DNA of 64,000 bases, from the NCBI GenBank assembly GCA_051294905.1, contig CM119373.1, forward strand, positions 2,792,001 through 2,856,000, written 5' to 3'. The translations under genes and the position numbers were made by a program. This DNA is from Botryllus schlosseri (taxonomy: Eukaryota). The notes beneath the pieces were generated by a model. That model was not told the origin of the DNA and did no database searches. It worked only from the letters and a program-made list of their open reading frames with translations. This document shows positions 32,751-58,646 of this stretch, piece by piece. Position 1 is the stretch's first letter; each line of letters starts with the position of its first letter.

Positions 32751-35700
32751 TTTTAAATCTGACAAACACACCTGACAATTTGGTATTTGTTGTATTGACG
32801 ATACCTTGAAATATATTACAACGAACAGTGACGGAAACATACACGGACTACCGGTTTCATAGTATACCCACATCAGTCGTATCACATCAATATCATTGGT
32901 TAACCACATACAATATGCTCTTGTACACCGAAATGCATGTTTTGGAAAATTGGACAATATAGGCTTCGATAGTTCTGTGATGTCCGGGTTCGTGCTTTGG
33001 ATTTTCCAGAGTCAAAATGTCTGAATAAAACACCTCCTCGACGATGGTTGGTATGTGGATAACGGTGTTCGGAAAACGGTTGGATTTATGTCACCCATCG
33101 CGATAACAACTCCAGGTCGAGTTTCCCACCGCATGTTTACTATATTGTGTCTTTATTGGTCAATGTATGTCTCGTCATTCAGTTTGAAATCGGAATCCCT
33201 GATAAAGTATGTAACCGGATCCGGATATCAATTCTGAATCGATAAACCAATGAGCAATATTCAAAGTAAACATGTTGCACACTGTGTTTCCACGACAAAA
33301 TACCATCCAGACATACGTCGCGCTTGTTTACCCACAACAGTATACGCGTAAATGGAGGTGTGTGACATTGCATGCAATGTGTTGGTATACAAACATCGGG
33401 GAGTAAGCCTTCGATCCACAGACATTATCATAGCCGGTAGTTTTGATGTAGATCGAATGTCATCAAGCACACCCGATAACAATGTCATACCAATAAGCCA
33501 CATTACAACTTCGGGGGGGGGGGGGGGGGGCGGGACTGAATACATAAGATGTTGAGGCGCATTTGAAACAAATCTGCGACTCGGGGAATGTCAACAGTAC
33601 AGAGTAAATTATGCTCACTTTCCCATACTGGAGGAGAGAAAACCCAGTACCAACATTATATTTGTAACTGTGATACGAAATTTAATTACTGAATATTCTC
33701 ACGCTTTTCCGGCATTCCTTCTATACAAAATAAATTCTGACTATTCAGTACTCCATTTCATGTGGACACAAATACCATTGTCTGAAAATTTCAAATCGGA
33801 CTTTTTGAAATGCGGTGCAGTTGGATGGAATGACAAGTTTCATACAAAGAGCATATCGATGCATGACTTTGACAAAGAGTACGTTCTTGAAATTGATCTT
33901 TATCCCAGCTTATCAAACGATGCAAAAGACATCGCATCGATTTTTGGTAGAACGTACGCATGTGAGCAATAGTTTTGAACAATGAAATTCACGAATAGAA
34001 AGCAAAGATCACGTATCTCGGACGCCCATTTAGAATATGGTCTGATTCTTGCTTCATCTGACTGCTACCAGAAGTTGAAAACTTTTCACAAAGCAAGCTG
34101 CGTCAATTGTCATATTTATTCTGCGTTGTTGAAGTGTAAATAATTGTGTTTTATGATTGGTATGATTGGGATTGCAGCAATGTAGGATAATATACCGAAG
34201 TGAGCGGAAAATATAGTATTAAGAAAAATTCCGGCCCGCCAGAAAGTTGCACACTCGAAATTTGGCCCGTGACTAGCAAAAGGTTGCCGACCCCTGCTCT
34301 ACGTATTGCAATTGACATCAATTCTCTAAATACTGCAAGGGTTACCAACTGCCACTACACTACAACTCTAGTATAGTATACTATCCACACCTAACTTAAT
34401 GCTGCAATAAATATCATGCTGTCGATCTATAGTTATAATGCTATAAGCCAACAGTTATAATGCTACCATGCCATCCAACCGGAAAATCAACCTATGGCTT
34501 GATACCAAGTCACTCTTAGATACAGGAGTTGTCAACAGAACCGTTACAGCATTTCGCAAGGACCCCCCAAAACGTTCGTTATGTTTTCCTTGCGGGTAGG
34601 CATTTGTCTTGCGGGGTTCAGATTGCCATGACATAAATATTAGAGGCGCCAGCCATTTAGACGCCTATGGACAATTAAACATATGGGCCTATGTAGATAT
34701 ATCGAAGTTTTCGGTCAGCATAAGGGCAGTCATTTTCGGCTCAGGTTTTGTTGCCGATCGTTGTGGCACACTTCTTGGAGTCGCATGTTACGTGGCCTAA
34801 AACTGTGTATATCTTAGTGCGTCGTGTGCGGTAATGGCCGACGCCTAAATGCCCATTTCTATAAACCATGCATATTTCTTCTTTCTGGAGGGAGAGTACC
34901 CAATAACCCAGATATTTGGCAACATTAAATCGCGCGTAGCTCGACAAATTTCTTTAAATATTGCATATTTTGCCAAAAAAACTCTATAATTTGTGTTAAT
35001 TTACGAAATAAGTTTGGGCCCCCATCGAGCTCCCCCCCCCAATTGGGGGTTTGGGGTGTGGCAGTTACTGGCCTGGTTGTCAGTACAATTTCGAATTAAT
35101 TCCGTATGGTGTTGGCTACACAACCAGGTTGCGGGTATATACTATATGTGCCTACACGTTTCCAGCTAGGGTTGCACTTAAAACATAAATCATGTTAAAC
35201 TAAACATGTTTAAAACATTACGCTTCTTTAATACATATTTTGCAATGTTTTTTTTTTGTTTGTTTAATTTTAGCCATGACGACGCACCAAATATTTGATT
35301 GTGACGTCACAGCGGATAAAATTTGATAATTGATCAAAATATAGGGTAAATATGGCTCCTTTGACGAAAAAAGGCTCCCGACCCCTGTCATAAACAGACC
35401 AAAAATATCTTTTCACTGTAAATTCCAAGCGTTATGCTTGAACACGAAATGCCTTTTTCCCGATTATTTAGTTGGGTAATATTGAAGTAAACACCGTTCC
35501 AGCAAGAGAGCGAGGTGTGTTTTCGCGTGAGTGGCATAACTCGTGCTCATTCCTCATTCTCCTCTTATCTCCTAATATAAACTCTCAAACGAAATGCGGT
35601 ATCTCGCGGTCGATGGTGTGTCTGGCGCGGGAATTCAGAGAGCGTGGATCGCATTTTGTCACATTTTCCTCGAGCGTCGAATTGCAAGCTGGTTCGTGAT

Positions 35701-36194
35701 GGATTCCGAATTGGCTCAATATTTGTTAGGGAACGGTTTAGAGCAGAGACACGTCTACTTATTGAAAGGTAAGTGTTGAGAATATCCATCACGCACATCA
35801 GTAAGCTATTAGATATGTTCTCTTTATTAACGGTATGCCATGGTGTCTTCCATTTCAACGGCTCGACTGTTATTTGTTAACGTGCAGCAACGCGTTTTGG
35901 TTCATTGTAAAGCTCACAGATGCAGATATAGTGTTGCTGTTCTTGAATTTTGCGTCGTACTATGGTAACAGTGCAACTCGTGGTACCGTACCGCTATTTG
36001 TAGCAATCGGCAGAGTGTAAAATTGTACAGTAAAACCTGGTGCAAGTTCCTTGCAAAAACAGTACGGTATGTAATATGGTATCAAAATCGTTTACATTAG
36101 AAGTTGAAATCATGAATAAATTTCCAATATTGATTTTACCCCTTCTATTGACACAGCTTTATTGCTATTTTGTTAATGTAACTTCAGTAGGATA

Positions 36195-37760
36195 ATGTCT
36201 GAACCACGGATTGCTTGCTGGTATGCCCATTTTTCTGTTCTGATCAGGATACTCTAACAAAGCACTTGTTGCATCGTCACAAGGATAATGGCGATTTCAT
36301 AATATCATGCAGAATCTGCCATTTGCGTTTTTCCAACTTCAAGGGGCTAAGGAATCACGTTGTCAGGCAACATAAAAGTATGTAACTGGCAGGCCCACCG
36401 AGTCCTTCTGGAACTTGTAGCGAAATTGACTCTTATATTGATGTAGAGCCCGCGTCGACAGAAGTAGTTCAGCCACGCCCTATCGAATCGGGTACTCTGG
36501 GTCAAGCAGCTTTACTGTTGCGACTAAAAACTATTCATAAACTGAGTGATTCAGGGCTTACTGATATCTTGTCATCTAATGTCAATCTGCTGAATAGCAT
36601 TTCTGCGGATAATTGCTGTGCTTGTTGCAAACAAAGGAAGCAAGAAAAACTTTTTATAAGGAACATTTTGGTCTTATTGAACCTGAAAGTGTCGAATTCG
36701 GGACACGCTTTGAGAATATTAAAACTCGCCAACTCGGGATGGTTATATGCTCCAGAAAGCTTCTGCATACGGCTACTTTGTACCTTTTATGCGGCAGTTA
36801 GAAGCACTATTGAACGCCACTGCTGAATCTCTCATTTCAAAGCCGGATCCGTTTCATGAATTTCATACCATGACAGACTGCTTACATGGAGATTATCTCA
36901 AAAGTCATCCTGGGATAATTAGTCACCCTGACTGCCTGCTATTCTCCCTTTATTTTGATGAATTTGAAATAGTTAATCCAATTGGATCCCACCGTAAAAA
37001 ACACAAAATATCGGCATATTACTGGTCGCTTTTAAACATCCCGGCAAAATGTAGAAGCAAAACGGATAGCATACAGTTGTTGTGTCTTGCCAAATCTGTT
37101 GATCTTAAAATGTTTTCTGGGTATAATATTCTGTTAGCAAACTTTGTGGCGGCGATGAACAGCCTAGCAGAAGGCGTCACCTTTACTGTTAATGGAGTGA
37201 AGAAAATTGTGCATGGATATTTGCTCTTTTGTATTGGTGATACACCTGCTGCTCAGCAGCTTGCGGGGTTTAAAGAAGGTGTAGGTGGTGCAGATAAACC
37301 TTGCCGTAATAACAGTGGTGTAAAAAAATCGGACTTTTTGAAGCCAGTAAATGCATTGAAGAACGAATCGTATGTTCTTGCCGGTACGCTCCCAGAACTT
37401 TCCGCCTATTCAACACTTTCTTCATCTGAAAATGTTGCTACATCCACGCAAGCTATATGCAATAACATTTGTTATAATACGAATGATTTTCTCGTGATGA
37501 AATTCTCGGATTTCAGCTACCCGCAGTTCATTTGCGTTATTACCTTTGTACATGCATCAGGGCCCATATTTTGCATGTACCGTCGCCTAAATGTTCTATA
37601 TTTTGAGTCCAAATTCAATGCATTTGCCGTACAAAGTAGTGATGTTGTTGAGTTCTGTAAAGTTTCCGACTTCAACTATCCGTGGCCACAAATTAGTCAC
37701 AAAATTGGTGACATCCAGTATATTATAACCAAGTGTGTTGATCAGGTGTGGTGTCTTTAA
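36195..37760 (+). pseudogene. EnSpm/CACTA-type transposase with N-terminal C2H2 fingers; frameshifted and internally deleted
   Basis: Finger pair C..CPF...LTKHLLHRH / SCRICH...LRNHVVRQH, then FYKEHFGLIEP, YFVPFMRQLEALL, LYFDEFEIVNPIGSHRKKHK..YWSLLNIP..RS and IGDTPAAQQLAGFKE..PCR. These match recalled animal EnSpm transposase motifs. A 337-aa stretch (36747-37760) is open. Confidence 0.8.
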
Positions 37761-38879
37761 AGGCTGTCGTGCTGAAGCTAGTAGAGTCTTTGTTCAACAT
37801 GTCATACACTTGGAAGTGAAAAGTAAATTTGTATTTTTTTTTTCTTCAGAAAATGAAGTATCTAGCAGGACTTTCGGCATGCTGGCTGATGAGGATTTCA
37901 TTGAAATGGATTTTAAAGTCGGCATGCGCCGCCTTTTGATTGTCCTGAGAGATGTGAGTATATTGTTTCCATATTCGTGAGCTATGAATTTCCCATCGTG
38001 GAATGGGAGCTATCATCATCATATAATCTTGTCTTGCAGAAGTGGAGGTCGGTCAAACACAGCGAGACCAATTTAGCGCCGCATGTACCTGCTCAGAATA
38101 ATGGTTTCGAACATCCAGGGACATCTACTCCTGATGTGCGTAGAACTTATTAAAGGCAATATTTCATGCACCGTTACATAGAACTATATTTTACAGAAAA
38201 TTCAACTCACGAAGATGCAAGTAGAATATAATACGAAGGACTCACCTGCATCAAATACTGACGTTTTGGTATGAACAATTATATAACTATAATCTACCGA
38301 TACGCACAAATTCAGTAATATCACATTTCAGGGCAGGGATGTTCTAGCGATTTCAGAAGATAGTGAGCTGGAAATTTCTGCAATTCCGGACGATAGCGAG
38401 ATGGAAATTTCTCCAATTCCAGACGATAGTGAGCTGGAAATTGCTCAAATTCCAGACAATAGTGGGCTGGGAATTGCTCCAGCCAAAAAGAGATTCACAT
38501 TACCAAAATTCAGTGCCCGTGTTACATCCGCATTGCAACAAGGAAAGGCTGGTCATTTACTAAATTCTGTGGTGGAGGAATGCGCATACCACATCCGAGC
38601 ACACGGTGATATGACATCCAAAGGAGAATATACTGAATTCTCCTGGAATCTTTGCGAAAAGTATACATGCCTTGCCTGCAATATGATGGGGCTGGGCGCC
38701 ATCCCTGGGTAAGTGTTCATTGCCAGTTGTTTGACCTGGCCTATATCCTTTCAACGGCTTTCTCAATTACAGACATTTTTCTCAAAGAAACTCTCCCAAA
38801 AGATGAGAAACATTCGTCTCAAGAACAAGAAGAAAACAGCCGTCGTCAATTTCTGTTCAATCGATGGTAGCATCTAATA

Positions 38880-39247
38880 CAGTGGTTCCCAACCTTTTTC
38901 GACCAATCGCCCCCTTTTCAAGGTCAACACCGATCATCGCCCCCCAAATTTTGTGCATCGATAATTGGGCATACAGACTGTAATCACCGGCGGGTTGACT
39001 AAAAAAAAAGCTGAAAATAACGTTTTTCGCTTCGCATTGCTAGGTGTATGACTAAAAAAAAAAAAAAAAAAAAAAGGTCAGCCAATTTTACGCGTCATCG
39101 CCCCCCTATCGCCCCCTTCGCTATTTTCGCCCCCCGTCGCCCCCTTTGTCCATTTTCGCCCCCCTGTCGCCCCCTTCGTCATTTTCGCCCCCCTAGAACG
39201 CCAAATCGCCCCCTAGGGGGCGATATCGCCCACGTTGGGAACCACTG
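38880..39247. mobile_element. hAT-type MITE with TCGCCCCC repeats, in intron 6 of the SAM gene
   Basis: TIRs CAGTGGTTCCCAAC/GTTGGGAACCACTG and 8-bp TSD ATCTAATA. Confidence 0.9.
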
Positions 39248-42200
39248 ATCTAATATGATTTTAATCATTTCTCTGTTTTGATAGCCTTTGAATATTATAA
39301 GGGAATGACCAGATGGTATCTGACAGCGAAGAACTTCTGGCAAAAGAGTATTCAAAGCATGATCCGGACTGGTCAAAAATTAGCGCGCTGTTCAAAAAAT
39401 TTCACAGCTCACGTCGCCAAATAATAGCGGATATGCCCACACGAAGTGTTCGTGAAATACTGAAGAAATTTCCGTATCTTTCCAATATGAAGCTAGAGTG
39501 AGTATCTGGATTCTAGGCAAGAATGTGCTCAATTCACTCGCATTGTGTGATAACCTTGGCGATAAAATGCTAATGTTCCACTTGAATGTTCAGATCTGAG
39601 AAGAATTTGAGCTTTTAACATCATGCTCGACACCGAAAATGACGCAGCAGTACCGAATTATGCTCTCTACTGTGGATAAGATGATTGGTGCAATTTCGGA
39701 AGGAACGGTCAGTACTAAATTATTTATTATTCACGCACCCATACTGAACACATCCTATACGACGGAAATTAGTAGAATAAGGTGGCAGGGGTTTCAAACT
39801 GAACTGGTATCGCGGGCCGGATTCAAACATTCAGATCGCTCACGGGGGCTGTACCAGACAAATGATTCTTATACGTTGCCTTGAAATTCATGCCATTGTT
39901 TTCACGGGTATACTTTATTATCAAATCTTGTATGCAAGGCGATAGAAATATATGTTTAACATGCTCGTGCTCGTGCATAAGACCTAATGTACTAACTTTC
40001 TTAAAACTATGTTTTACAGGGAGAAGATGAAAGAAAAGAGGTCAGAACTCTGCTATTTCTTCAGAAAGAATTGACCGATGGGCGAATAAGATCAAAGTCA
40101 ACGTTGCTCGCCATCGACGTAAAACAGGTATAATTCTAGGTCACAAGTAACCAAACAGATACCCACTGTGCAGCAGCCACATATGGCCGACGAGAAGGTT
40201 TTAAGGAAGGAGGTGATTGTTGCAATTAGATATATTACCAATTACCACGTTGGCTACCCCTGTTCTACCTCGATACTTTAAGCCAGGGGCTGGTGGCCCG
40301 TGAGAAAGTTTTGTGTGGTGTGGTGCAAATGACTCGTGTCAAGCCGAGTCCTCAGAAAATCGTGACCCGAGTCATTACAACCCTGGAAATGTCCATGTGG
40401 TCTAATTGTAATTCTAATCTAATTGGGTAAATGTGTTTGTGCTCTAATTTTAGTTCGAATCTAATTTAGTGTTTTCATGAAAGTGCCTGTTTGTCTGCGG
40501 CATTTTGCAACAAGAATATCCCTCTCGCGCTGAGTGCCAAGCCGCCATCGCATTACTTGCACCGTCCGTACAATAGTAGTTACTGTGACCAATGATAGCC
40601 ATGCTGCGGCATATATATGGTGGCTTGTACAGTCTGCGAACAACATTATAGTTGCGATCGCGTTTTTAAAACTTCCCGTTAACACAGCGTCATGCTCACT
40701 TGCATGAGCGATGAGCATGGTTACCACAAAAGAAGTAATTTTACTAAAGAAGTACAGACACAACAAGAAGTCTTATGATCATTAGCTTCATTTTATTTTG
40801 AACTATATTGAGCCGCGCACTATACCTGATCAGTTATCATGTTTATCATCGACTAATGAATCGATATTAGGACTATTTTATATTCATACATGTATAGCTG
40901 AAAGAATATTTCATCCTAAAGATTGATTTTGTGGGAAACCCCTAAGCCATTTTCTGGGCGTCTTGGGTGTCATCAGTAGTCCAAGTATTAGTCAATGTCA
41001 CCCTGCTAAGTTTCACAGTACATTTTTGCGACTAACGCGCTAGCCAAAACCTGCTTTAGGGATATAGTGTAAAGTAAAGATTGAAAGCACTTCGTTACAA
41101 ACGTTATTCTGAGTGTGGACTTTTGAGCTATATGTGCATTGAAGTCGAAGCTAAGAGTGTTATCTTTTATTCTTGCTCAGCAATACCTCGAACAGTCGTG
41201 CTTCGAAAATGGTTGTCATCATTTGATATGTTAACTATATATATATATACTCTTGCCGCATGATTTATATGCATTCGTGTTATTTCAGGGGCATGAAGCT
41301 GAAGTTGCATCTTCGAAAATGGATCCACCACACCTACTGATCGTCTGCCATGAGTCGGGCGTTCATCAAGGATGGGTATTGGTTGATAATACCAGTATTT
41401 CATGCACAAGAGGACAAGGGATCCTAGGCATGGTCATTGACCTCATGTCTTGTTTCTATGCCTGGGACCTTGCATACCCTAAAACCTTCATGGTTCTCGG
41501 GTTTTTACAAAAGATGGTAATCGGGGACGTGAAAATTGCTTTGAGATACTAAGATAAAGGGGGCGCGACAATGTTACCTGACAGTTGACTGAGTTGAGCA
41601 TGAGACGGTATTTCAAGTGCATGCATATGGATGAACTGTTATTTTGCAATAAAATTCGTTTTCATTTCAAGCTCTGTGTCGTTGTTCAGCATGACAGCGT
41701 AGCGATTTTCATTTTGAGCTCTGCGTTGGTAATTAACGCATCAGCGTTAAACTTGAACGTAAAAAGTGGTAGACGTAATTGTAGACACAATCGGACGGTA
41801 AAAAGGGGCTCACTTTTGGCGTTTAATTTTACGTCTTAGAAACGCTTTTGAAACTCAAGAGTGAGGACTACATCCTTATGCGGCAATTTTACGGTTTCAT
41901 CGGAACACGCCTGTCATACCGATGATATATATTTACGTGCTATAACCGCTCAACCGACGACGATTTCGAGGGTTCTAGCCACTTCATACCGTATACGTCG
42001 ACGATATCGGATGCAAATCTTCCATTTAGGCCAGCGGCTCTTGAACTTTTTGAACCGCGACCCAAATCTGAATTTTGTAGGCATCTCGCGACCAATGTTC
42101 CCTTTAATTTTTGATGAGTCTACACACACTTACCAACTCACTACGCAGACCCTTGGAGAACAGTGCGTAACGACTAAAAAAGGTCATCACTTCGGATTTT

Positions 42201-42336: not shown

Positions 42337-43510
42337 CGGGATGGTGTAAACTTATGAAAGGATCAGGTTTGTGTGAACGCGAGCCTTTTCGAAAGGTTCT
42401 GTTTGAACGCCAACGTGAACCTCGTGAAGTCAAGTGACGTCAAATTGCTAATTTCAACCCTACATTTCAGTGACGTGATAGTCTATATCAGTGGTCGGGA
42501 ACCTTTTTGGTCCGAAGAGCCATATTGGCCCTATTTTTCCATCTCAATTCCCAAAGAGCCATACATGACATTCAACTGTTACGTCACAATTGAAAATTCA
42601 GGACATCATGGTAGCAGTAATTAGAACTCACTATACATGGGATTCCTCGTGTGCGGCATATTTTCCCTGTAAAAACTGGTATTTATTGTTCGAAAATAAA
42701 GCTCGAAACGAGTGGTAAGGCACAGACGGGCCAAGCCTCACCGTTGATAACACTATTCGTCGTATAAGTAGCTTAGAATTTATTGTAACTGATATTAATC
42801 GAATGTGACTGTCACTCTGATACTTATCGACTTCTCAATTCTCAAAGAATTCGGTGGTAACATGATGTTGGGCTACACGCATACATTTTATCGCCGGCAC
42901 TACATAGAGCTATACTTAGTACTTACCAATCAAGAACGTGGGGATATATGGCGTTGTTTGTAATTAGAGTTTGTAATTGTGGATGTCACATCAACAAGCC
43001 GCGCCGTAGATAAGCAAGACAATTTGTATTTGAAAACTGCGTTTTAAAATGAGCGTCGCCATGTCTGCTATGCTCTTTGATTAATCAACTTATCGCACAG
43101 TTCAAGATTTGGAGTCGGGTACGTAGAATTCGTGAGAGACATTGGCCGCCGGCGTGACAGCTACATAAATTTGATCATTTTCAAAAGAGGGTGTGAGCCC
43201 CTAAACCTCAAGACAGCATTGTCTTCACCTCTCAAAGACATGTTTACACTGCCACGAGAATAATTATATTGGCCATGATGAAAATTTACCAACAAGTCGC
43301 TGCAATATTGATCAATTCAGTACAAAAATAAATATTCGGCAAAGAGCCATATCTTATACCCAAAAGAGCCATATATGGCTCGCGAGCCATAGGTTCCCGA
43401 CCACATGATGAATACACAAGATACTTAGCGACGACTCGGGCCACATGATGCCACAATGCTGAAGTACATATTGACGTTTTAAACGCCGCCAAATGTATCA
43501 ACTGCGGCAA
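42337..43510. mobile_element. Partial GGGATGGTGTGAAC-family MITE with a nested CAGTGGTCGGGAACC MITE (42489-43407)
   Basis: The outer parts are the reverse complement of ~49040-49267. The inner element is homologous to 22296-23221. Confidence 0.8.
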
Positions 43511-50171: not shown

Positions 50172-50439
50172 TTACGACGTAACCGGCCGCTCGCATATGG
50201 CTGCAAGCTTCCGTGTACACGAGATATCTCCAAGCCCGTTAAACGTATGGAATTCACTAAGCCAGAACAGGCAATTCTCAGCCGTTCCGCGATTCGGCTC
50301 CAAACGTCTCCAAGTTGTGAGGTCAGCAGTAGTCACCTCAACGGAATCCTGAAAAACCCACGTGTTTTCCGTGACGGCATCTGAACCCCCGACAAAGTAT
50401 GCTCTATTGTCTTGAAGCCCCATCTCAAATCTTTCGAAA
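50172..50439 (-). CDS. Terminal exon: C-terminal half of a C-type lectin domain (EPN type)
   Basis: YFVGGSDAVTENTWVFQDS..WRRLEPNRGTAENCLFW..GLGDISCTRKLAAICERPVTS*. Its phase-2 acceptor is compatible with exon 55329-55170. An alternative in-frame acceptor lies at 50430. Confidence 0.9.
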
Positions 50440-50874
50440 CTGGAAGGTTGAAATATTTCCGTTGTGCCATGCGACGCAAGGAGGAAGATTAACTGTACCG
50501 GGATCAAGGGCGTGGCCAAAAATTAATAGAGGCCCACTAATTAGATAAGGTAAAAGATGTCCCCCCCTTAAAAAAACACCAAAATCTATTTGTCTTGGAC
50601 CCATACTGGGTGATTAACACAATTTTTAGGGAGATCTTTCACCCACAGATATATGTAATGAAAGATCAGTGTGCTTCTACTTCCGCACAAAGCTAGAGAA
50701 TATATTCAAAAGTTAAGGGTCAATTGATCAATAATATTATTAGTTGCAATGGTCTTGGGCATCCCATTGGGCGATCAACCGAACTCCTGGGGGCTTCGTC
50801 ATATTAACATCTCATGTCACATCAACTCGAAAGTCTGACTTCATAGTCATGTATGCACATTGCACAGTGTACAC

Positions 50875-51678
50875 CAGGGGTCGCCAACTCAAAACGGGTC
50901 GCGGGCCACTTTTCAAATTTCGTAGCGGCCGCGGGCCGCATGAATTCGATATCGATATAAAGTAGGCAACCACGTTTTAAAACTCTACGTCGGTACAACA
51001 CTGTGCTACCTAACATAGACGATGGGTATAGTGATCACAAAAGAAGTAACATTTTATTAAAGGAATAAAAATAGAACAGAATATCACCGTCATCAATTTC
51101 ATTTTATTTTGAACTCTGAGCTGTGCACGATACCTTGAAACGCTTTTTGGGGCTGGCGAGATACGTTACTAGATGCATCTCCACGTAAAGCTTGATCTTG
51201 TGAAGAAGCCCTAAGCCAGTGGTTCTCAAACCTTTTTAGAGCTGCCCCGCTTTATGATACTGAAAATTGTCGTCCCCCCTTATTGTCACATCACAAAATG
51301 CACCCATAAAGCTAGTAATCCGAACGGATAGTTTAATGGCATGTATGGTTATGAATGTTGATGAGAGAATTCTATAATATGAATTCGGGACTGTACACAG
51401 AGCAATAACTATAATTTTTCAGTTGACTGCAGCTCCGCGCCACCTTCAGGTGCTTTCACGCCCCCACAAGGGGACGCGCCCCACAGTTTCAGAACCACTG
51501 CCCTAAGCCGTTTTCTAACCGTATCGGTCTTGGCTGTATTTCGGCCATTGCAGGTCAATTTCAGCATTTGCAAAATGTTTTCTTAGCTTTCTTCCGAAAT
51601 CTCAAATCAAGTCGCGGGCCGCAAAATATGACCTCGTGGGCCGCATGCGGCCCGCGGGCTGCGTGTTGGTGACCCCTG
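50875..51678. mobile_element. hAT-type MITE with a nested MITE (51217-51500)
   Basis: Outer TIRs CAGGGGTCGCCAAC/GTTGGTGACCCCTG with TSD GTGTACAC. Inner TIRs CAGTGGTTCT/AGAACCACTG with TSD CCCTAAGC. Confidence 0.9.
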
Positions 51679-52210
51679 GTGTACACCGTGCACATCATAT
51701 ATATTGTCGCGAATCCTGAAGAAATTTCCTAATGCGTGCCTGAATTTTACCAATAATTGCATATCATATAATTGCCCACTTGATAATTTTTACAGGTAGA
51801 GCTAAGGGATGTGGCGTCTTCACACGTTTTTACACGTTAATGATATAGAATTAATTAAATATTTTATCCATCCACGAGCGGGCGGGCGGGCGATGTTATT
51901 TAATTAATCTGTTACATGGTCTTATTTCGTGACCTCTCGGCTTCCATATGGGTAAAAGATATTGGAGTAGCACAAATGTATCAGACTGAACTAAAAGACG
52001 CGCCTCTTTCGTGAGACATCCACGATTCCAAGTTGGCATTTCATCACGGACTGCGGCATTTTTTCAGATTGCCAAGATAGAGCTATTCGGTGCCGACCAT
52101 TTATGCACGTATATGAACATTTGACAACTGAACATTAGGCGTCAAAATTCCTATTTCGATATATTAAGCTATAGTTAATTTTATTTTTTCTGGGGGGATG
52201 AGGTACTCAT

Positions 52211-54546
52211 CAGGGCTTTTGAGCCGGAGCCAGGGCCCGGAGCCGGAGCCCCGGAGCCGTGCATTTTGACCGGAGCTGGAGCCGGAGCCGTAGCTCTACA
52301 TAAAATTCAGCAGGAGCCGGAGCTGGAGCTAGTTATTTGAGGGGTAGCTCCAGCTCCGACTTATTTCATAAGATGCTATTATATATGTAACTAACCATCT
52401 GCTGAGTTCACATAATTCAACAGCAGGCCTTCGCGAAATTAAGAATCTTTTCCTCTTTGGCGCTACCTTTTCCGACTAACCATGTTCCTGGGGATTTAGC
52501 AGCAGAGCAGTCATATGTTATTGTTCAAATTTCATACATGAGTGCCGAACCTTGGTATGCTGGATATGCCTGTGAATATTGTGGATATTCGGCATACCCA
52601 CATTTCATCATCAGCATAATTTTGTTGGCCAATTGCACGGTTAGAAAATAATGATCACTATGTATTACACGAAATGGGAGAGAGGTTAAAAACGTCATAT
52701 CGTTGCACTAGTCGATATGATGATCACGAGCCTAGAAATTCCATCTCATCGTTGCTATGAATCGGATGAGCAAATACTCGTTCTTTCGTGATAGTTCTTT
52801 AATCGGGCCGCGAAATTGGACAGTGTTATTGAGTATGCAATTATGCATGCGAATTGGAATTCATTACTGCGCATGATCGTCATTCACTACAGTAAGGATT
52901 TTCGAGCGTGAATAGGGGATGGCAGAACAGTAGCCTAAAGCGCCATTACACTCAGCGAATAATTGTCGCGGTGCGAGCTACTCAATGCGATGTCAGGACC
53001 CCATGGTATTTTATGCTGGAGACAAATTACTGTTTTGATACGCGATTTCCAATTTTCAATCATCTGTTTCGCAAATTCCTTCTTGATGTCTGCTTGATAG
53101 GCTACTCCAGTATTCCCAGATTATCGCGCACTGTGACTTGTAAATGTACAATGTGCATACTGCATAGTTTAATTCGTTATGAGCATCGCGCAATGTGCAT
53201 GGCACAGTGTTTAATTCGATTATTCGATTCGTTTCATCGGGAAAATATTATATTCCGATAAACTTGATCAACACCGGATGGACTGGTAACGAGTGCACCA
53301 ATATCGAACGTCAAACCATTGGCCATTTGGTACAAATCGAATTACTATTGATCAGGTCGTGATGTCCGCCCATATTGCTCTTACTACCGTTACAATTGCA
53401 TAGTAATCGCTCATATTTAAAGATCGAATTGAGCTGTATGGCTTAATGTCAACGAGTACAGTGCCAGTGTTAAAACGCCGCGTCAGAATTTTCATACTGT
53501 ACACAGCAATGGCATGGAGTTAAGTGCGTTCTAGCTAGTGCAACTATGATGTTATCCAGAATTGACAAGTATTCATTATGCCTCCACAAGCCGACACGGC
53601 GGCACCTATGTCTTCGTTGCTGCACCCGATGTTACTGACGGCTGACAGACTCAAGATTACTACAGATAACTAACCTACGGGGAAATAAGTAATCTATATA
53701 GACCAGGGATGGCCAACCTTTTCGACTAAAGGGGCACATGCAATTGACGAACTAATGCGCGGTCCACTGGCTGCGCCAAGCGGGTAAAATTTTCAAAGTT
53801 TATAAATGAACTAGGTCAATAATATTATTACTTGAGTATATTGCGGGTCTATTTTAACACCCGCTGCGCTCAGTTTGCAAGGACAGGACTATTCGGCATC
53901 TGGACATATCGATATCGAAGTTTCCGCTATAATATACGACAATCATTTTGTGCCTACATTTCATCGTCGACGATCTTTCTGCGAGCGCAAACACGAAAAT
54001 ACTTTTTCACGTAATTGCGAATATAGTTAGACTCAATAGGCTAAATCAGGCGTTTTTCATTTTCAGGAGGGGGTAGGCTACAAAGCAAGAAATCGAGTGA
54101 CAATTAAACACGCAAAGCGCGAAGAAAAATATTACTACTCTTTTAGATAATTGTAATGTACGACGATTTACTAAAAATGTGACTGGACCCTGGATCTGCT
54201 AATGCGTCGGAACTGATATTTCAGTCATCAATATTCCAAGTGTCGCGGCCAGACTAATCATATTTTGGTTGGCATTGCAAGTTCACAATCTGAGCAATTC
54301 AATTTCTATAATATAACAGGATTTCGATAATATAATGGGAAATTAACTCAAAACCTTTTGGCGGGTTGCCACCCTTGAAAGACAGACACATTCGACAGTT
54401 TCAGAGCCGGAGCCCGAGCTGGAGCCGGAGCAGTGGTAATAATGGGCCTCCGGAGCTGGAGCCGGAGCTAGTGTATGCTAGAAGAAAGCTCCGGAGCCGG
54501 AGCCGGAGCTGGAGCAATGCAAATTTACGACTGCTCCAAAGCCCTG
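52211..54546. mobile_element. Large hAT-type non-autonomous element with (GGAGCC)n subterminal repeats
   Basis: TIRs CAGGGCTTT/AAAGCCCTG and 8-bp TSD GTACTCAT. Confidence 0.9.
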
Positions 54547-54759
54547 GTACTCATATTAAAGTCAAGACACGTAGGGCGAAATTAACTCACGCGCAGCGCG
54601 ACGAAATATTTATAGTTTAATGACTCTAAACAAAAATAATCTATCAATTTATATTTATTCACGAAATAATTTCAGCTCGCCTTCTAATGAGGGGATTTGG
54701 GGTTCGACTCAGTTCCACTAGCCTTAGATTCACGTCATCGCAGGATTCTTTCCTATAAC

Positions 54760-55157
54760 TAGAGTTGCATTTAAAACAAACATGTTTAAAACAAGGCCTT
54801 TTTTAAAACATGTTTTCTATTGTTTTTTTTAAAGCCTCGACGTCACGAATTTCAAGTGTGACGTCATAGTGGATTGACATTGACAATTAAAAATATAGCG
54901 TAGACTAGCTCCTTTGACGAAATATCTGTATGTTGAACCGACTAATTTGAGGGCTCTAACCATCCCAAATCGATCTACGGATGGTATTGCCTGTAGGCTC
55001 ATACATCATTATCTATGGAAAGTATTTACACAATTATGGCATAATTTTACAACTTGAAAAAAACGACTTTTTTAAAAAGCCTTTTTTTAAAAACACTGTA
55101 TAAAATATGTTTTAAACAAAGTGTTTTAAAACACCGTTTGTTTCAAATGCAACTCTA
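54760..55157. mobile_element. hAT-type MITE
   Basis: TIRs TAGAGTTGCATTT/AAATGCAACTCTA and 8-bp TSD CCTATAAC. A related fragment is at ~35167-35370. Confidence 0.9.
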
Positions 55158-55169
55158 CCTATAACCAAC

Positions 55170-55329
55170 CTGAAGAGATCGCCACTCCTAACTGCCACCG
55201 ATGCAAGACGCGCAGTCGAGTCGATATTTGAGCAGGTGGATGTCTGAACATCGTACGTTGCCAAAGAATTGATGTATTTGTATTCATGTCCATTCGAGTA
55301 ACGATACCACCCGTCAGCCGTGAACCCAA
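55170..55329 (-). CDS. Exon: N-terminal half of the C-type lectin domain
   Basis: A 160-nt phase 1-2 exon bounded by AG/GT: GFTADGWYRYSNGHEYKYINSLATYDVQTSTCSNIDSTARLASVAVRSGDLF (GW..Y..C...arLAS pattern). Confidence 0.85.
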
Positions 55330-56317
55330 CTGCAAGGGGCAATGTTTTGTAGGCCAGTTTCATAAAGTAATTGCATTTCAAGAACAGAATGATCTATCAA
55401 AAAATGTTAGCCTTCATTTGCTCAACCTCAATTTCACTCTGATATGTTTTCCTGATGAAATGATGTGTCGGATGAAAGGAAGTACTTAACTTAACTTTGT
55501 AGACTGAAAAGTACTTTCATTTAGGGATTTTTTAAAGAATAAATTAGCATTGTAATACTTTTTCATCGTGTTTACGAATGAAGTTTTCATTATATGTCCA
55601 CGGACCGTGTGCAATAGCTCCTGCGTCACTTTAATTGAGTATGTTTCCTAAAATTGCACTAATTTATTGTGGCATTGATCGTTCTGCATTAGTCGTGAAC
55701 CAGACATGAAGCACTTCGTCAGCTCCCCAAAAACGTATTTCTGTGACCCAGTTAGGGTTATCAACCAAACTGCTGGAGGCCCTCGTAAGTCATCAGCAGC
55801 GCAAACCACGAGCATTGTCGCCCAAGCAATTTGGCACTAAGGTTGTTCAAAAAAATTGAAATTTTGCGACTATTTTATAAAAATGTAATGTTGCCTCAAA
55901 AAACGTTGCACGCAAGATTAGACTCAATTGCAACTAGTAGATGTGAAGCTATAGGAGTTTGGAAATTTTTAATGCCATTATTCAGACACGTTCCGTTATG
56001 TTGATCAATATTCGGGTGCTGATCACAGTAATTTACTATACAGAAACAAAGCGACGTGGCTAAGGAATTAGAATTAAGGCTGGGAAAATGGTTCGAGTAC
56101 TGGAATCTCACACGAGTATTAATTCTAATGATTCGAGTTGAGTTGTGAGAGATGATTCTTTCATGCAATGAAAAATACCCTTCTACCACTAAAAAGTGAA
56201 TTAATCAACCAGAATTACAATTTCGATACTATTTGCCAATGTGCAAGCCTTGAAACCGCAGTTGCTAGTAGCGCAGGATATGAAACATGTCGAACCAACC
56301 TACTACACACGTTAGAG

Positions 56318-57477
56318 CGGGGGTGGGCAATCTACGGCCCGCTGGCCGTATGCAACCCGCAACACCTTTTTGTATGGCCAGCGAGAGGCTCCAGAGACGG
56401 ATTTAAAATTGGTAAAATGCGTACCAAAATTTTTATTACTGCAGGGACTCGATTAAACTTTTTCTTGTTATTCTTCACCACAATAATCATATGTTATATT
56501 CGTACTAACTATTGCATATTTATATTTCATTGCTGGCGCGATAGTCCGACCTCAAGGCCCACGCATTTTAAAAGGTATCAGCACAGTAGTTATTATTAAT
56601 ATTATTATTTATTGGAAGAAGAAAAGGAGTGTCGCCTATCACCGTTAGGTCTTGTGCGCCACGACAGTACTCAATTTTAATGTATAGCAGCAATTCAAAT
56701 ATATCGATTACAGCTCAGCACATATTCTACCACGTATTTCAAAATGCTTGGATTCGGTAGTAAGTTGACGAGGCGAAATGGGATATTTATACAAACACAC
56801 ACGACGCAGGAACGTTCTATGAAATTCATGCGAGGGGCAGTTCATTATAACGTGCTCAACCGTCTCAGGTTCATTGCAGGAGCTACAATGCGATGAAGGC
56901 GCGATTCCAATCTTAAACAAGTGTGCGTTCAGTAGTTAAAACGGGAATGACTTCGGGATCACGAGTGTAATTTTATATTGGCCACTTCAGCATATTTGTG
57001 ACTTTTGGTGCTGTAGCCTACTTGGAAAAATCACGAGCGTGTTCTGTATGTGCACAAATATTAAAAAATCTATATGTTTTAATGGGAGCGTATTTGAAGC
57101 TAGCATGGTTGTGACGCTGTCAGCATTGTGTGTCCTCGAGCTGAAACAAAAGTAGAATCAGCAAATCTATAAACAGATCACTGCTTACAGACTCAACTCT
57201 CCACCCTGTTCAAGAATCGGGACAACAGACTTTTGTCCCTAGTTCGGAAAATTGGTTATTGAGTTTGACAATCTTATGAAATCGGACGCGTGTACGATAT
57301 CATCAAATCAATGTTTTGTTTGTTTTAAATCAGCATATATATTATTGCCATATCCTCACTATATGATCAAATACCAATATTGCGTTTCGGTTTATAATTC
57401 CGTTTTATATATTGCGGCCCTCAAATAGATTAAGATGTTGAATGCGGCCGGCGAGCTAAAAATTTTGCCCACCCCTG
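56318..57477. mobile_element. hAT-type MITE containing a LINE 3' fragment
   Basis: TIRs CGGGGGTGGGCAA/TTGCCCACCCCTG. Confidence 0.75.
56590..56935 (-). mobile_element. Non-LTR retrotransposon 3' fragment with a C-terminal CCHC knuckle and (TAA)n-like tail
   Basis: LNAHLFKIGIAPSSHCSSCNEPETVEHVIMNCP, with an AAT-rich tail at ~56590-56612. Confidence 0.75.
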
Positions 57478-57731
57478 TGTCGGAGGAAATGTCATATCTA
57501 CGAATCGCGATCAACCCACATAATTATGACAAAGTGCAACGAAATGGGTTTGATCCTAAAATAACAAATTATCCTTAATCTGATGTAGAACTGGCATTGT
57601 ATTCTTTGTGGTCACTTTCCACATCGTTCATACTGTTTTGACGTGCTCGTGAGAGACACTCAAATGCTAGACTCGACTTGAAGTCTAATACTCGAATCGG
57701 ATTCGTTCCTAATTGGAAGCAATATACTTAC

Positions 57732-58646
57732 GGCTGCAGGTTTTCCCGTAATTTCCGTCGGTGCAATCACACGTATAGTACGGATGAGTGTCATTATTCA
57801 GACATGTTCCGTTATGTTGACAAACATTCGTATGGTGTTCACAATATCTCTCTGCATTGAAACGAAGCGATAACTGGTTCAAACCTACTCACGTTATAGA
57901 CACAAACAAGTATTGTGGGAATGAGCTTGTCTTCTTCTGGACATCACATAGCTCAAGAATTAGGAGCGATGTACTTACGGCTGCAGTTTCTTCCATAATA
58001 TCCGTCGGTGCAATTACACGTATGATACGGTTCAGTGTCATTCTTTAGACATGTCCCGTTATGTTGACAAACATTGGGGTGGTGTTCACAAAAATTTTCT
58101 ATATAGAAACGAAGCGATGTGTCAGTCGTACTGGATTTATACACAACCAAATGTTGTGGCGGTGAGCGAGTCAATTTCTGAACAAGTCTGCTCAAGTTAT
58201 ATACGAGCACATGTTGTGGCAGTGTCCCAATCATTTCGTCGACATAACTCAAGAATTAGAAACGATATAATTACTACTGAAGTTTTTTCCATAATATCCG
58301 TCAGTGCAATTGCACGTATAGTACGGATGAGTGTCATTATTCAGACATGTTCCGTCATATTGACAAACATTCGTATGGTGTTCACAATATCTCTCTGCAT
58401 TGAAACGAAGCGATAACTGGTTCAAACCTACTCACATTATAGACACAAACAAGTATTGTGGGAATGAGCTTGTCTTCTTCTGGACATCACATAGGCTAGC
58501 TCAAGAAGTATAAGCGATATACTCACGGCTGCAGTTGCTTCCATAATATCCGTCGGTGCAATTGCACGTATAGAACGGTTTATTGTCATTATTCAGACAT
58601 GTTCCGTCATGTTGACAGGGATTCAGGTGATGATTGCAGTAGTCGC
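57732..58646 (-). CDS. Four 120-nt EGF-domain exons of EGF/C-type lectin gene copy 2
   Basis: Exons 58646-58527, 58394-58275 (last Cys changed to Phe), 58098-57979 and 57851-57732 are all phase 1-1 with AG/GT. A truncated fifth unit lies at ~55975-56040. Confidence 0.85.

Follow-up and report, generated by a model that had tools for sequence, protein, structure and literature searches.

An EnSpm-like transposon of Botryllus schlosseri with its transposase gene inside an intron that splits a SAM domain

In a 64,000-nt stretch of the Botryllus schlosseri genome (assembly GCA_051294905.1, contig CM119373.1, positions 2,792,001 to 2,856,000 of the forward strand; hereafter, the window), positions 35414-41863 are a multicopy CMC/EnSpm-like cut-and-paste transposon, in which the transposase gene lies within the first intron of a second gene, encoding a SAM-domain protein. 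We consider it probable that this is a two-gene CMC/CMCT element forming one transcription unit, in which a choice in RNA processing would determine which protein is made, and in which the second protein would bind the transposase and polymerise through its SAM domain. The features of the window copy are as follows.

35414..41863, + strand: whole transposon copy, decayed and non-autonomous, with CAC..GTG ends and no target duplication
35414..35433, + strand: left terminal inverted repeat, imperfect, ~20 nt
35699..35768, + strand: exon 1 of the SAM gene, 70 nt, first SAM half, with the ATG and a phase-1 GTAAGT donor; ATG and GT kept in 16/16 copies
35769..37849, + strand: intron 1, 2081 nt, containing the transposase gene
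36195..37760, + strand: broken transposase with two C2H2-like fingers, the first two catalytic D motifs and the C-terminal domain; deletion at ~37307
37850..37953, + strand: exon 2, second SAM half; AG/GT intact in all 12 (of 16) copies retaining it
38040..38135, + strand: exon 3, linker
38197..38268, + strand: exon 4, linker
38332..38708, + strand: exon 5, an acidic 33-nt tandem repeat followed by the beginning of the conserved helical domain; carries a frameshift in this copy
38773..38866, + strand: exon 6, encoding the conserved KLSQK helix, whose counterpart residues touch the transposase in the oyster model
38880..39247, no strand assigned: unrelated MITE in intron 6, 368 bp, with an 8-bp target duplication
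39302..39497, + strand: exon 7, 2 nt longer than in six other copies
39594..39707, + strand: exon 8, with a premature stop in this copy
40020..40127, + strand: exon 9
41289..41552, + strand: exon 10, encoding the C-terminal alpha/beta domain, which is conserved; its usual end is lost through a deletion after 41529
41648..41653, + strand: AATAAA, conserved in the copies compared
41842..41863, - strand: right terminal inverted repeat, with mutations in this copy

The preliminary description of this locus had proposed an EnSpm-like transposon at these positions, and comparison of copies bore this out. A genome BLAST with the element returned 165 pieces, and its ends, CACTC or CACTG in the copies compared, recur in 15 other copies in this genome; TA stands at both flanks of 12 of these, TG at both flanks of one and no duplication at two, while the window copy is flanked by TT and AG. 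We applied the CMC/CMCT definition (PMC12730594) as a DDE transposase whose C(2)C and H(3-4)H motifs stand after the second D and ahead of the E, 5'-CA..TG-3' termini and a target duplication of 2-5 bp. The element has such termini and, in most other copies, a duplication of that length (TA), and the motifs are found in the intact relatives L041, P0001, P0012, P0008 and P0021; the window copy keeps two D motifs, the remaining ones having been deleted. Among Pfam families, Plavaka matches L041 at 31 bits (cut-off 26.3), DUF4218 matches 8/23 relatives (best E 0.002) and Transposase_21 (PF02992) matches 2/23 weakly (best E 0.046).

Both genes of the window copy, transposase and SAM gene, are dead. 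The transposase sequence is spread over three frames, is interrupted by a stop at 36383 and, measured against an intact relative of 813 aa, has lost residues 391-664, among them the DPMH motif and the catalytic E; thus, of the earlier claim that a whole C2H2-finger/transposase ORF lies in intron 1 on the same strand, the location and strand stand and the wholeness does not. In the SAM gene, exons 5 and 7 are frameshifted, exon 8 contains a stop, and the deletion after 41529 takes away the normal C-terminus. That the copy is dead had been overlooked in the preliminary description. The copy itself is without activity and its interest lies in the layout of its relatives, intact ones being present in this genome. 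We also considered whether non-autonomous copies retain an intact SAM gene as a rule, which was ruled out, as L024-L026 are without exons 2-5 and L028-L034 without exons 6-8. The MITE in intron 6, which we take to be hAT-like, is missing from copy L021, which is 97% identical to the window copy.

The exon structure first described for the SAM gene, namely a 70-nt phase-1 exon, a joint from 35768 to 37850 and eight more exons ending in AATAAA, was upheld: exon 1 has an ATG and a GTAAGT donor, the acceptor of exon 2 consists of a pyrimidine tract and AG, and all eight exons after it have canonical AG/GT sites. The same joint was said to complete a SAM domain. Indeed, against a profile built from seven mollusc SAM domains, exons 1 and 2 joined score 23.6 bits and singly only 4.3 and 7.8, while none of 300 shuffles exceeds 8.0. 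Pfam searches with single window exons gave no SAM match for exon 2 alone and no match at all for exons 5 and 10; among homologs, SAM_2 was found in 11/18, and in P0107 it reached 26.3 bits (cut-off 20.5). The modelled domain superimposes on the Scm/Sfmbt SAM domain with Z 11.9 and an rmsd of 1.8 over 70 aligned residues. Profile and five-helix fold together show that the partner protein carries a SAM domain. Fold searches with the non-SAM part gave a best Z of 5.3, with no E below 0.3 in Foldseek against the PDB. Identification of the helical domain as BEN- or HTH-like was set aside, since no fold match appeared in PDB or viral libraries, an absence that does not amount to exclusion. A word-index search with exon 10 retained 0 of 13 candidates; a HMMER search returned 78, some of them repeat artefacts (e.g., P0029).

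The SAM gene is part of the element and not of the host: its last exon has at least 150 matches in this genome, and lies at most 7 kb downstream of the transposase, on the same strand, at 17 of the 20 loci in this genome with at least 35% identity to P0001 (an eighteenth locus also has the last exon). Values of dN/dS between 0.18 and 0.44 in five between-subfamily pairs indicate that its coding sequence has evolved under selection. The nested layout, moreover, is old and recurs in many related animal elements. The earlier question of whether the transposase always lies in intron 1 was answered largely in favour of conserved nesting: all 30 loci with a second SAM half (28 metagenome loci and two from this genome) have the same phase-1 acceptor downstream of the transposase, and exon 1 was found upstream in 9/19 testable loci, with a gain of 14.6-45.4 bits (best control 8.6). 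At the other ten, which include L042 of this genome, exon 1 was not found; four of these have less than 550 nt upstream. L041, an intact 813-aa family member, shows the same nesting, and the intron position is the same across transposases only 34-53% identical. Terminal repeats searched for in 14 metagenome loci were not convincing, so that element borders are unproven there. It could be supposed that the SAM gene belongs to the host, since annotation treats its homologs as ordinary genes, either uncharacterised or SAMD3-like, and that the transposase inserted separately into its intron, the case named at the outset as fatal to the nested reading. We regard this as highly improbable and, on the evidence, refuted: in 12/15 copies both genes sit between common outer ends flanked by TA, the copy number and the fixed intron position are at odds with it, and no inverted words of at least 8 nt bracket the transposase inside intron 1, which argues that it is not an independent insertion.

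Our proposal is that a single transcription unit would hold both genes, presumably behind a shared promoter. Splicing of intron 1 would, by the processing route we infer, remove the whole transposase gene and join the SAM halves, giving a product of ~500 aa with the SAM domain, a disordered linker, the helical domain and a C-terminal alpha/beta domain; keeping intron 1, or splicing to an acceptor right before the transposase ATG, would give a transposase of ~810 aa. The full SAM protein and the transposase would thus not be obtainable from one processed RNA. In oyster, the RefSeq gene LOC134240278 is modelled with both products, isoforms X1 and X2 being the transposase and X3 the SAM protein. 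The 34-residue tail of X2 corresponds to SAM exon 2 in a different reading frame, with 33 compatible steps against no more than 6 in shuffles, and X3 begins with a different upstream exon, not the first SAM half. As for the window, RNA reads of run X16 cover 35744-36409. Contig pieces from run X1 stop at the borders of exon 7 and near the exon 1 donor, though introns are covered as well and the RNA nature of this run is a guess. The 35768-37850 joint is absent among 15 joints listed (of which there are 108 more) from four runs, mostly from a DNA-like run and at low RNA depth; the low depth of runs X16 and X12 across the core of the transposase could stem from deleted copies and not from splicing.

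In a sister clade of elements, the partner carries CIDE-N in place of SAM. Both fold types make head-to-tail filaments, as described in PMC8647176 and PMC4980433. The partner ATG of this clade is located after the transposase, and a split domain is therefore not required. Acceptor-like sites, as would accompany a non-coding first exon before the transposase, occur in 6/18 CIDE-N genes against a background of 17%. Neither SAM nor CIDE-N follows the transposase at 14/61 metagenome loci. A CIDE-N search of this genome gave no match, its controls being silent too, and the literature matches listed contain none that links CIDE-N with a transposase or EnSpm.

Structure prediction suggests that the SAM partner binds the transposase. 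The oyster pair scored 0.64, compared with 0.01 for the best of three controls, and three runs agreed in at least 60% of contacts with a partner pLDDT of at least 73; the mark applied is reached by 51/78 solved and 2/108 mismatched microbial pairs, and by 39/65 solved and 2/126 unrelated eukaryote pairs. On the transposase side, conservation of the predicted interface falls below background (0.39 vs 0.58); on the partner side, it does not exceed that of the domain to which the interface belongs (0.78 vs 0.77). The accessory protein would most likely grip the transposase via its helical domain, may polymerise through SAM, and could serve the transposition complex as a scaffold or a brake, in the way TnpA works for TnpD, apparently without being a homolog of TnpA.

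These observations can also be read in two other ways. The genes could be nested yet independently transcribed from a transposase promoter in exon 1 or intron 1, the nesting being a frozen accident without a switch, while the partner may still aid transposition. Read-through from the exon 1 ATG stops within 1-48 codons, so that a shared RNA would place an upstream ORF before the transposase, which favours this reading, as do the CIDE-N clade, whose partner is without a split coding exon, and Arabidopsis Spm, with its separate TnpA-like and transposase genes (10.64898/2026.08.24.746577). The spacing between the exon 1 donor and the transposase ATG cuts both ways: in 4/9 relatives it measures 199-1002 nt and could hold a promoter, but each of these spacers ends, by eye, in a pyrimidine-rich AG before the ATG, and in the other 5/9 it is just 20-71 nt, which there favours intron retention over an alternative acceptor. 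As the X16 coverage and the joining of transposase to exon 2 in oyster X2 also speak against independent transcription, we hold it to be unlikely, though worth serious consideration. Alternatively, the main role of the partner could lie in chromatin or anti-silencing: its SAM domain would engage host Polycomb-type SAM polymers or bind element DNA, sustaining expression of the element, and the transposase contact would be spurious or secondary. In keeping with this, the nearest solved SAM domains are those of Polyhomeotic, Sfmbt, PHC3, L3MBTL3, Scm and SAMD1 (E 2e-7 to 1e-5), the conserved helix of the partner is basic, conservation is poor on the transposase side of the interface, and plant TnpA and VANC are described as element-specific activators (10.64898/2026.08.24.746577). 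Against it stand the complex prediction, with its three agreeing runs, and the exchange of SAM for CIDE-N, which speaks against particular SAM partners in the host being required; moreover, the 300-nt ends share no subterminal word of at least 8 nt, a comparison made on the decayed window copy alone. We judge a mainly chromatin-directed role to be quite improbable.

In maize En/Spm, the TnpD ORFs lie within intron 1 of tnpA, and plant En/Spm elements make a 3-bp target duplication and have subterminal repeat arrays; the present element differs in its 2-bp TA duplication. The likeness to maize, where one alternatively spliced unit is reported to give transposase and accessory protein and TnpD contacts TnpA directly (PMC1636069), extends to the layout proposed here, whereas the ends are CACTC/CACTG and not the CACTA core of plants (PMC1636069). 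Fungal EnSpm likewise makes a 3-bp duplication (PMC12730594). The preliminary description had equated the SAM protein with TnpA. A protein that works alike fits the oyster isoforms and the predicted binding, and those gene models support encoding within the same unit, a trait of TnpA-like proteins, which are further characterised by being needed for transposition and by binding to element ends; homology to TnpA was not found. The accessory protein described here carries a SAM domain whose coding sequence is interrupted by the transposase intron, and neither the TnpA family (no Pfam match in 18 homologs) nor the helix-turn-helix hallmark sought, two tandem tri-helical motifs ~45 aa apart, was detected. 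A 2026 preprint reports TnpA-like proteins as restricted to flowering plants (10.64898/2026.08.24.746577), and a defined second gene in animal EnSpm-like transposons would be a gain in this light.

Among other systems, ESTA, which with Plavaka belongs to the CMCT clade, shares the TA duplication with this element; it comes from rust fungi and has TET/JBP cargo, and a SAM partner such as found here is not mentioned in the available part of its description (PMC12730594). Zebrafish EnSpm-N49/N49B, classed in Repbase as animal CMC-EnSpm, have CACTC ends and a 2-bp duplication as here (PMC13189230); that report contains neither the gene structure of the autonomous element nor the words 'sterile alpha'. 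SmTRC1 of Schistosoma mansoni is also an animal CACTA-like element with a 2-bp duplication, and its spliced transcripts skip the transposase ORF; unlike the present element, it has CCC ends, and its second proteins are reported as not conserved (PMC1636069), whereas the partner described here, a SAM-domain protein, is conserved between phyla. We found no description of the nested layout, or of a SAM domain in EnSpm/CACTA, in a literature search that lay outside Repbase Reports, subscription journals and bioRxiv supplements, the last of which could list such accessory proteins.

Somewhat short of even confidence, we put forward a wider reading, in which this would be an undescribed accessory protein whose helical domain grips the transposase and whose filament module is interchangeable between SAM and CIDE-N, with RNA processing setting the ratio of products in the SAM clade, 'SAMD3-like' genes being element parts and vertebrate SAMD3 a domesticated descendant. 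A search of literature linking SAMD3 with a transposon, transposase or transposable element found none, and SAMD3 is absent among the named proteins from homolog searches. The link comes from one language-model feature search, not an alignment: in the ESM Atlas, the top clusters for an oyster homolog are SAMD3/'SAMD3-like' (score 0.96, 217/256 features shared, 263 members, most commonly Chordata). On such a reading, many gene models now labelled uncharacterised or 'SAMD3-like' would count as transposon parts, and SAMD3 itself would be given an origin. It also suggests a testable principle, that the transposase partner needs a polymerising head for which SAM and CIDE-N are alternatives. Finally, this transposase clade is described as related to Transib/RAG1 (PMC12730594), which makes a second cofactor solution of interest there.

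The transposon at 35414-41863 of the window (+ strand) is a dead member of a widespread two-gene CMC element whose nested design, a transposase enclosed by intron 1 of a SAM-domain partner gene, is conserved. The sequence is repetitive, giving 165 matching pieces when searched as DNA against the 495-Mb host genome. Among 20 element loci retrieved, the 15 with both ends start with CACTC or CACTG, carry the inverted word at the other end, and are flanked by TA on both sides (12/15), by TG/TG (one) or by unmatched dinucleotides (two); the flanks of the window copy are TT/AG. Overall, the nested, split SAM domain of the preliminary description was confirmed, the intact transposase ORF was not, and its interpretation as a TnpA-like partner controlled by splicing is partly supported.

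The SAM gene is real and part of the element. It has ten exons in the window, all with canonical splice sites; across 16 copies compared, the exon 1 ATG and donor are kept in all 16, and the exon 2 AG/GT in all 12 that retain this exon. The proposal that exons 1 (35699-35768) and 2 (from 37850) form one SAM domain held, as a SAM profile built from 7 sequences gives 23.6 bits to the joined exons, versus 4.3 and 7.8 bits to each separately and at most 8.0 bits to 300 shuffled controls. A search with exon 10 led to mollusc homologs and thence to full-length partner proteins, on whose full profile the ten-exon read-through of the window scores 192 bits. Pfam SAM_2 matches 11 of 18 full-length homologs, the homolog profile matches Polycomb-type SAM structures, and the model of one protein, P0120, superimposes on the Scm/Sfmbt SAM (Z 11.9, rmsd 1.8, 70 residues). 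Partner dN/dS is 0.18-0.44 between subfamilies (5 pairs) and 0.23-0.70 within them (4 pairs, few changes). That the gene is a transposon component, as previously suggested, is further indicated by its copy number: the host genome holds at least 150 matches to the last exon (150 scored of 570 candidates) and 56 to the transposase, many of the latter containing an open frame of about 810 aa. A last exon lies within 7 kb downstream in 17 of 20 closer transposase loci, a count into which 24 of the best 150 last-exon matches entered. Kinship with SAMD3 is a lead only, based on an ESM Atlas search that links an oyster homolog to SAMD3 clusters (score 0.96).

Several features of these genes and copies were observed alongside. 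A 33-nt tandem repeat (38350-38481) encodes an acidic 11-residue repeat in the partner linker, shorter in other subfamilies. Five oyster partner models (P0107, P0121, P0122, P0132, P0135) share a conserved extra 100-130 aa ahead of the SAM domain. As the stretch stands alone in P0134, it may represent a third small gene that annotation has fused on. Open full-length transposases occur in related families of the host genome, including C1:20641915-20644329 (-), C5:27477458-27479893 (+) and C3:18299289-18301724 (+), and the family of locus L042 may be recent, because its last exon is 99-100% identical in 4 copies. One subfamily (L024, L025, L026) has ~1.3 kb of other sequence in place of 36377-38706, and long unrelated ORFs lie in or beside family copies (704 aa, minus strand, in L030; 559-572 aa in L037 and L040).

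The window copy itself is dead. Its transposase, initially described as a whole ORF, is split between three frames, contains a stop and is missing the equivalent of residues 391-664 in the intact relative L041, a stretch that includes the DPMH motif, the histidines and the catalytic E; at this site locus L023 is longer by ~825 bp. In the SAM gene, exons 5 and 7 are frameshifted, exon 8 contains a stop, there is a 3' deletion, and one intron is interrupted by the following insertion:

38880-39247, intron 6: MITE of 368 bp, high-copy, with an 8-bp duplication

On either side of the transposon, small inverted-repeat elements resembling this MITE lie near 35330-35395 and 42480-43390.

The nesting of the transposase in the SAM gene is conserved. 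A metagenome contig scan kept 80 loci, 61 of them with the transposase C-end and at least 300 nt downstream. The second SAM half is present in 28 of the 61 (22 clusters at 90% DNA identity), compared with none in the reverse-strand control (0/61). Placement of the transposase in intron 1 was seen in part of the loci: an AG stands at the window's phase-1 position in 30/30 (these 28 plus L041 and L042 of B. schlosseri), and a SAM exon 1 that opens with an ATG and closes with a phase-1 donor was found in 9 of 19 loci having at least 300 nt upstream, and not in the other 10. Adding exon 1 gains 14.6-45.4 bits in those nine; the control reached 8 bits in 1/19. Seven of nine compared transposases are 34-53% identical. 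Element ends were not found in these contigs, where terminal repeats were sought in 14 metagenome loci.

In a sister clade of transposases, CIDE-N replaces SAM as the head of the partner, whose gene begins only downstream of the transposase. In 19 of the 61 loci, a CIDE-N exon begins after the transposase; SAM and CIDE-N never occur together (0/61), and 14 loci have neither. The CIDE-N loci include:

L068:4774-5790
L074:3561-4274
L076:9076
L086:3784
and 15 more

Each of nine exons tested has a Pfam CIDE-N hit, with E between 4e-7 and 0.03 and one above the cut-off, and partner-core exons are also present in five CIDE-N loci (L068, L074, L076, L077, L086). A quick tree of 48 transposases sets the 17 CIDE rows apart on one side of a branch (SH-aLRT 99), and 25 of 27 SAM rows on one side of another (99); SAM may be the older state, because the remaining two, L111 and L121, lie outside. 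CIDE and some SAM domains assemble head-to-tail filaments, according to the available parts of PMC8647176 and PMC4980433; we infer that the partner would require a polymerising head.

Two routes to the transposase can be weighed. The preliminary description proposed that splicing of intron 1 switches between the two proteins. Of nine relatives, four have the donor 199-1002 nt ahead of the transposase ATG and show, as read by eye, pyrimidine-rich AG sites near that ATG. In the other five (L055, L058, L059, L096, L100) the donor is 20-71 nt ahead, in the same frame with an intervening stop, and here intron retention with re-initiation would be a simpler route; these five are not independent, since four are close on the tree. 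Read-through in them would produce a transposase fused to half of a SAM domain. RefSeq gene models of oyster LOC134240278 (Saccostrea cucullata) give transposase as isoforms X1 and X2 and SAM protein as X3. X2 is identical to X1 up to residue 695, after which it follows SAM exon 2 in a different frame (33 compatible steps, as opposed to no more than 6 in shuffles); X3 reaches exon 2 from a different upstream exon. In the B. schlosseri RNA runs X12 and X16, depth is low on exons, and in X16 also on 5' intron 1; RNA is almost absent over 36410-37741 in both. The exon 1-exon 2 joint is not among the 15 read joints listed for B. schlosseri (108 more are unlisted). A splicing switch between transposase and SAM protein is therefore plausible.

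The partner is also predicted to bind the transposase. Its non-SAM part folds confidently (pLDDT 82), with no clear match in fold searches (best Z 5.3). The modelled complex of oyster X1 183-819 with X3 128-482 received 0.63-0.64 over three runs, and the highest score among three controls was 0.01; the runs share at least 60% of contacts, with partner pLDDT at least 73. The mark applied is reached by 51/78 solved and 2/108 mismatched microbial pairs, and by 39/65 solved and 2/126 unrelated eukaryotic pairs. The predicted contacts run between the transposase C-terminal region and partner residues 150-216, where the invariant KLSQK helix lies. Counting against binding, conservation at the interface falls below background on the transposase side (0.39 vs 0.58) and is level with that of the domain on the partner side (0.78 vs 0.77).

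Plant En/Spm elements duplicate 3 bp of target; unlike them, the present element has neither CACTA ends nor a 3-bp duplication. It agrees with the CMCT definition in the accessible text of PMC12730594, and would resemble En/Spm in its working, as a single spliced unit yielding transposase and accessory protein (PMC1636069, available part). A 2026 preprint (10.64898/2026.08.24.746577) states, in its available text, that TnpA-like proteins are found only in flowering plants; 'SAM domain', 'sterile alpha' and 'CIDE' are absent from its main text. Zebrafish elements have similar ends, the available part of PMC13189230 giving no gene structure. In the paper listings searched, we found no description of the nested transposase/SAM layout; Repbase, outside this search, may annotate the second gene. 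Elsewhere in the window, exon-like frames at 50172-58416 (- strand) resemble, as we take it, C-type lectin and EGF domains, and probably belong to a host gene.
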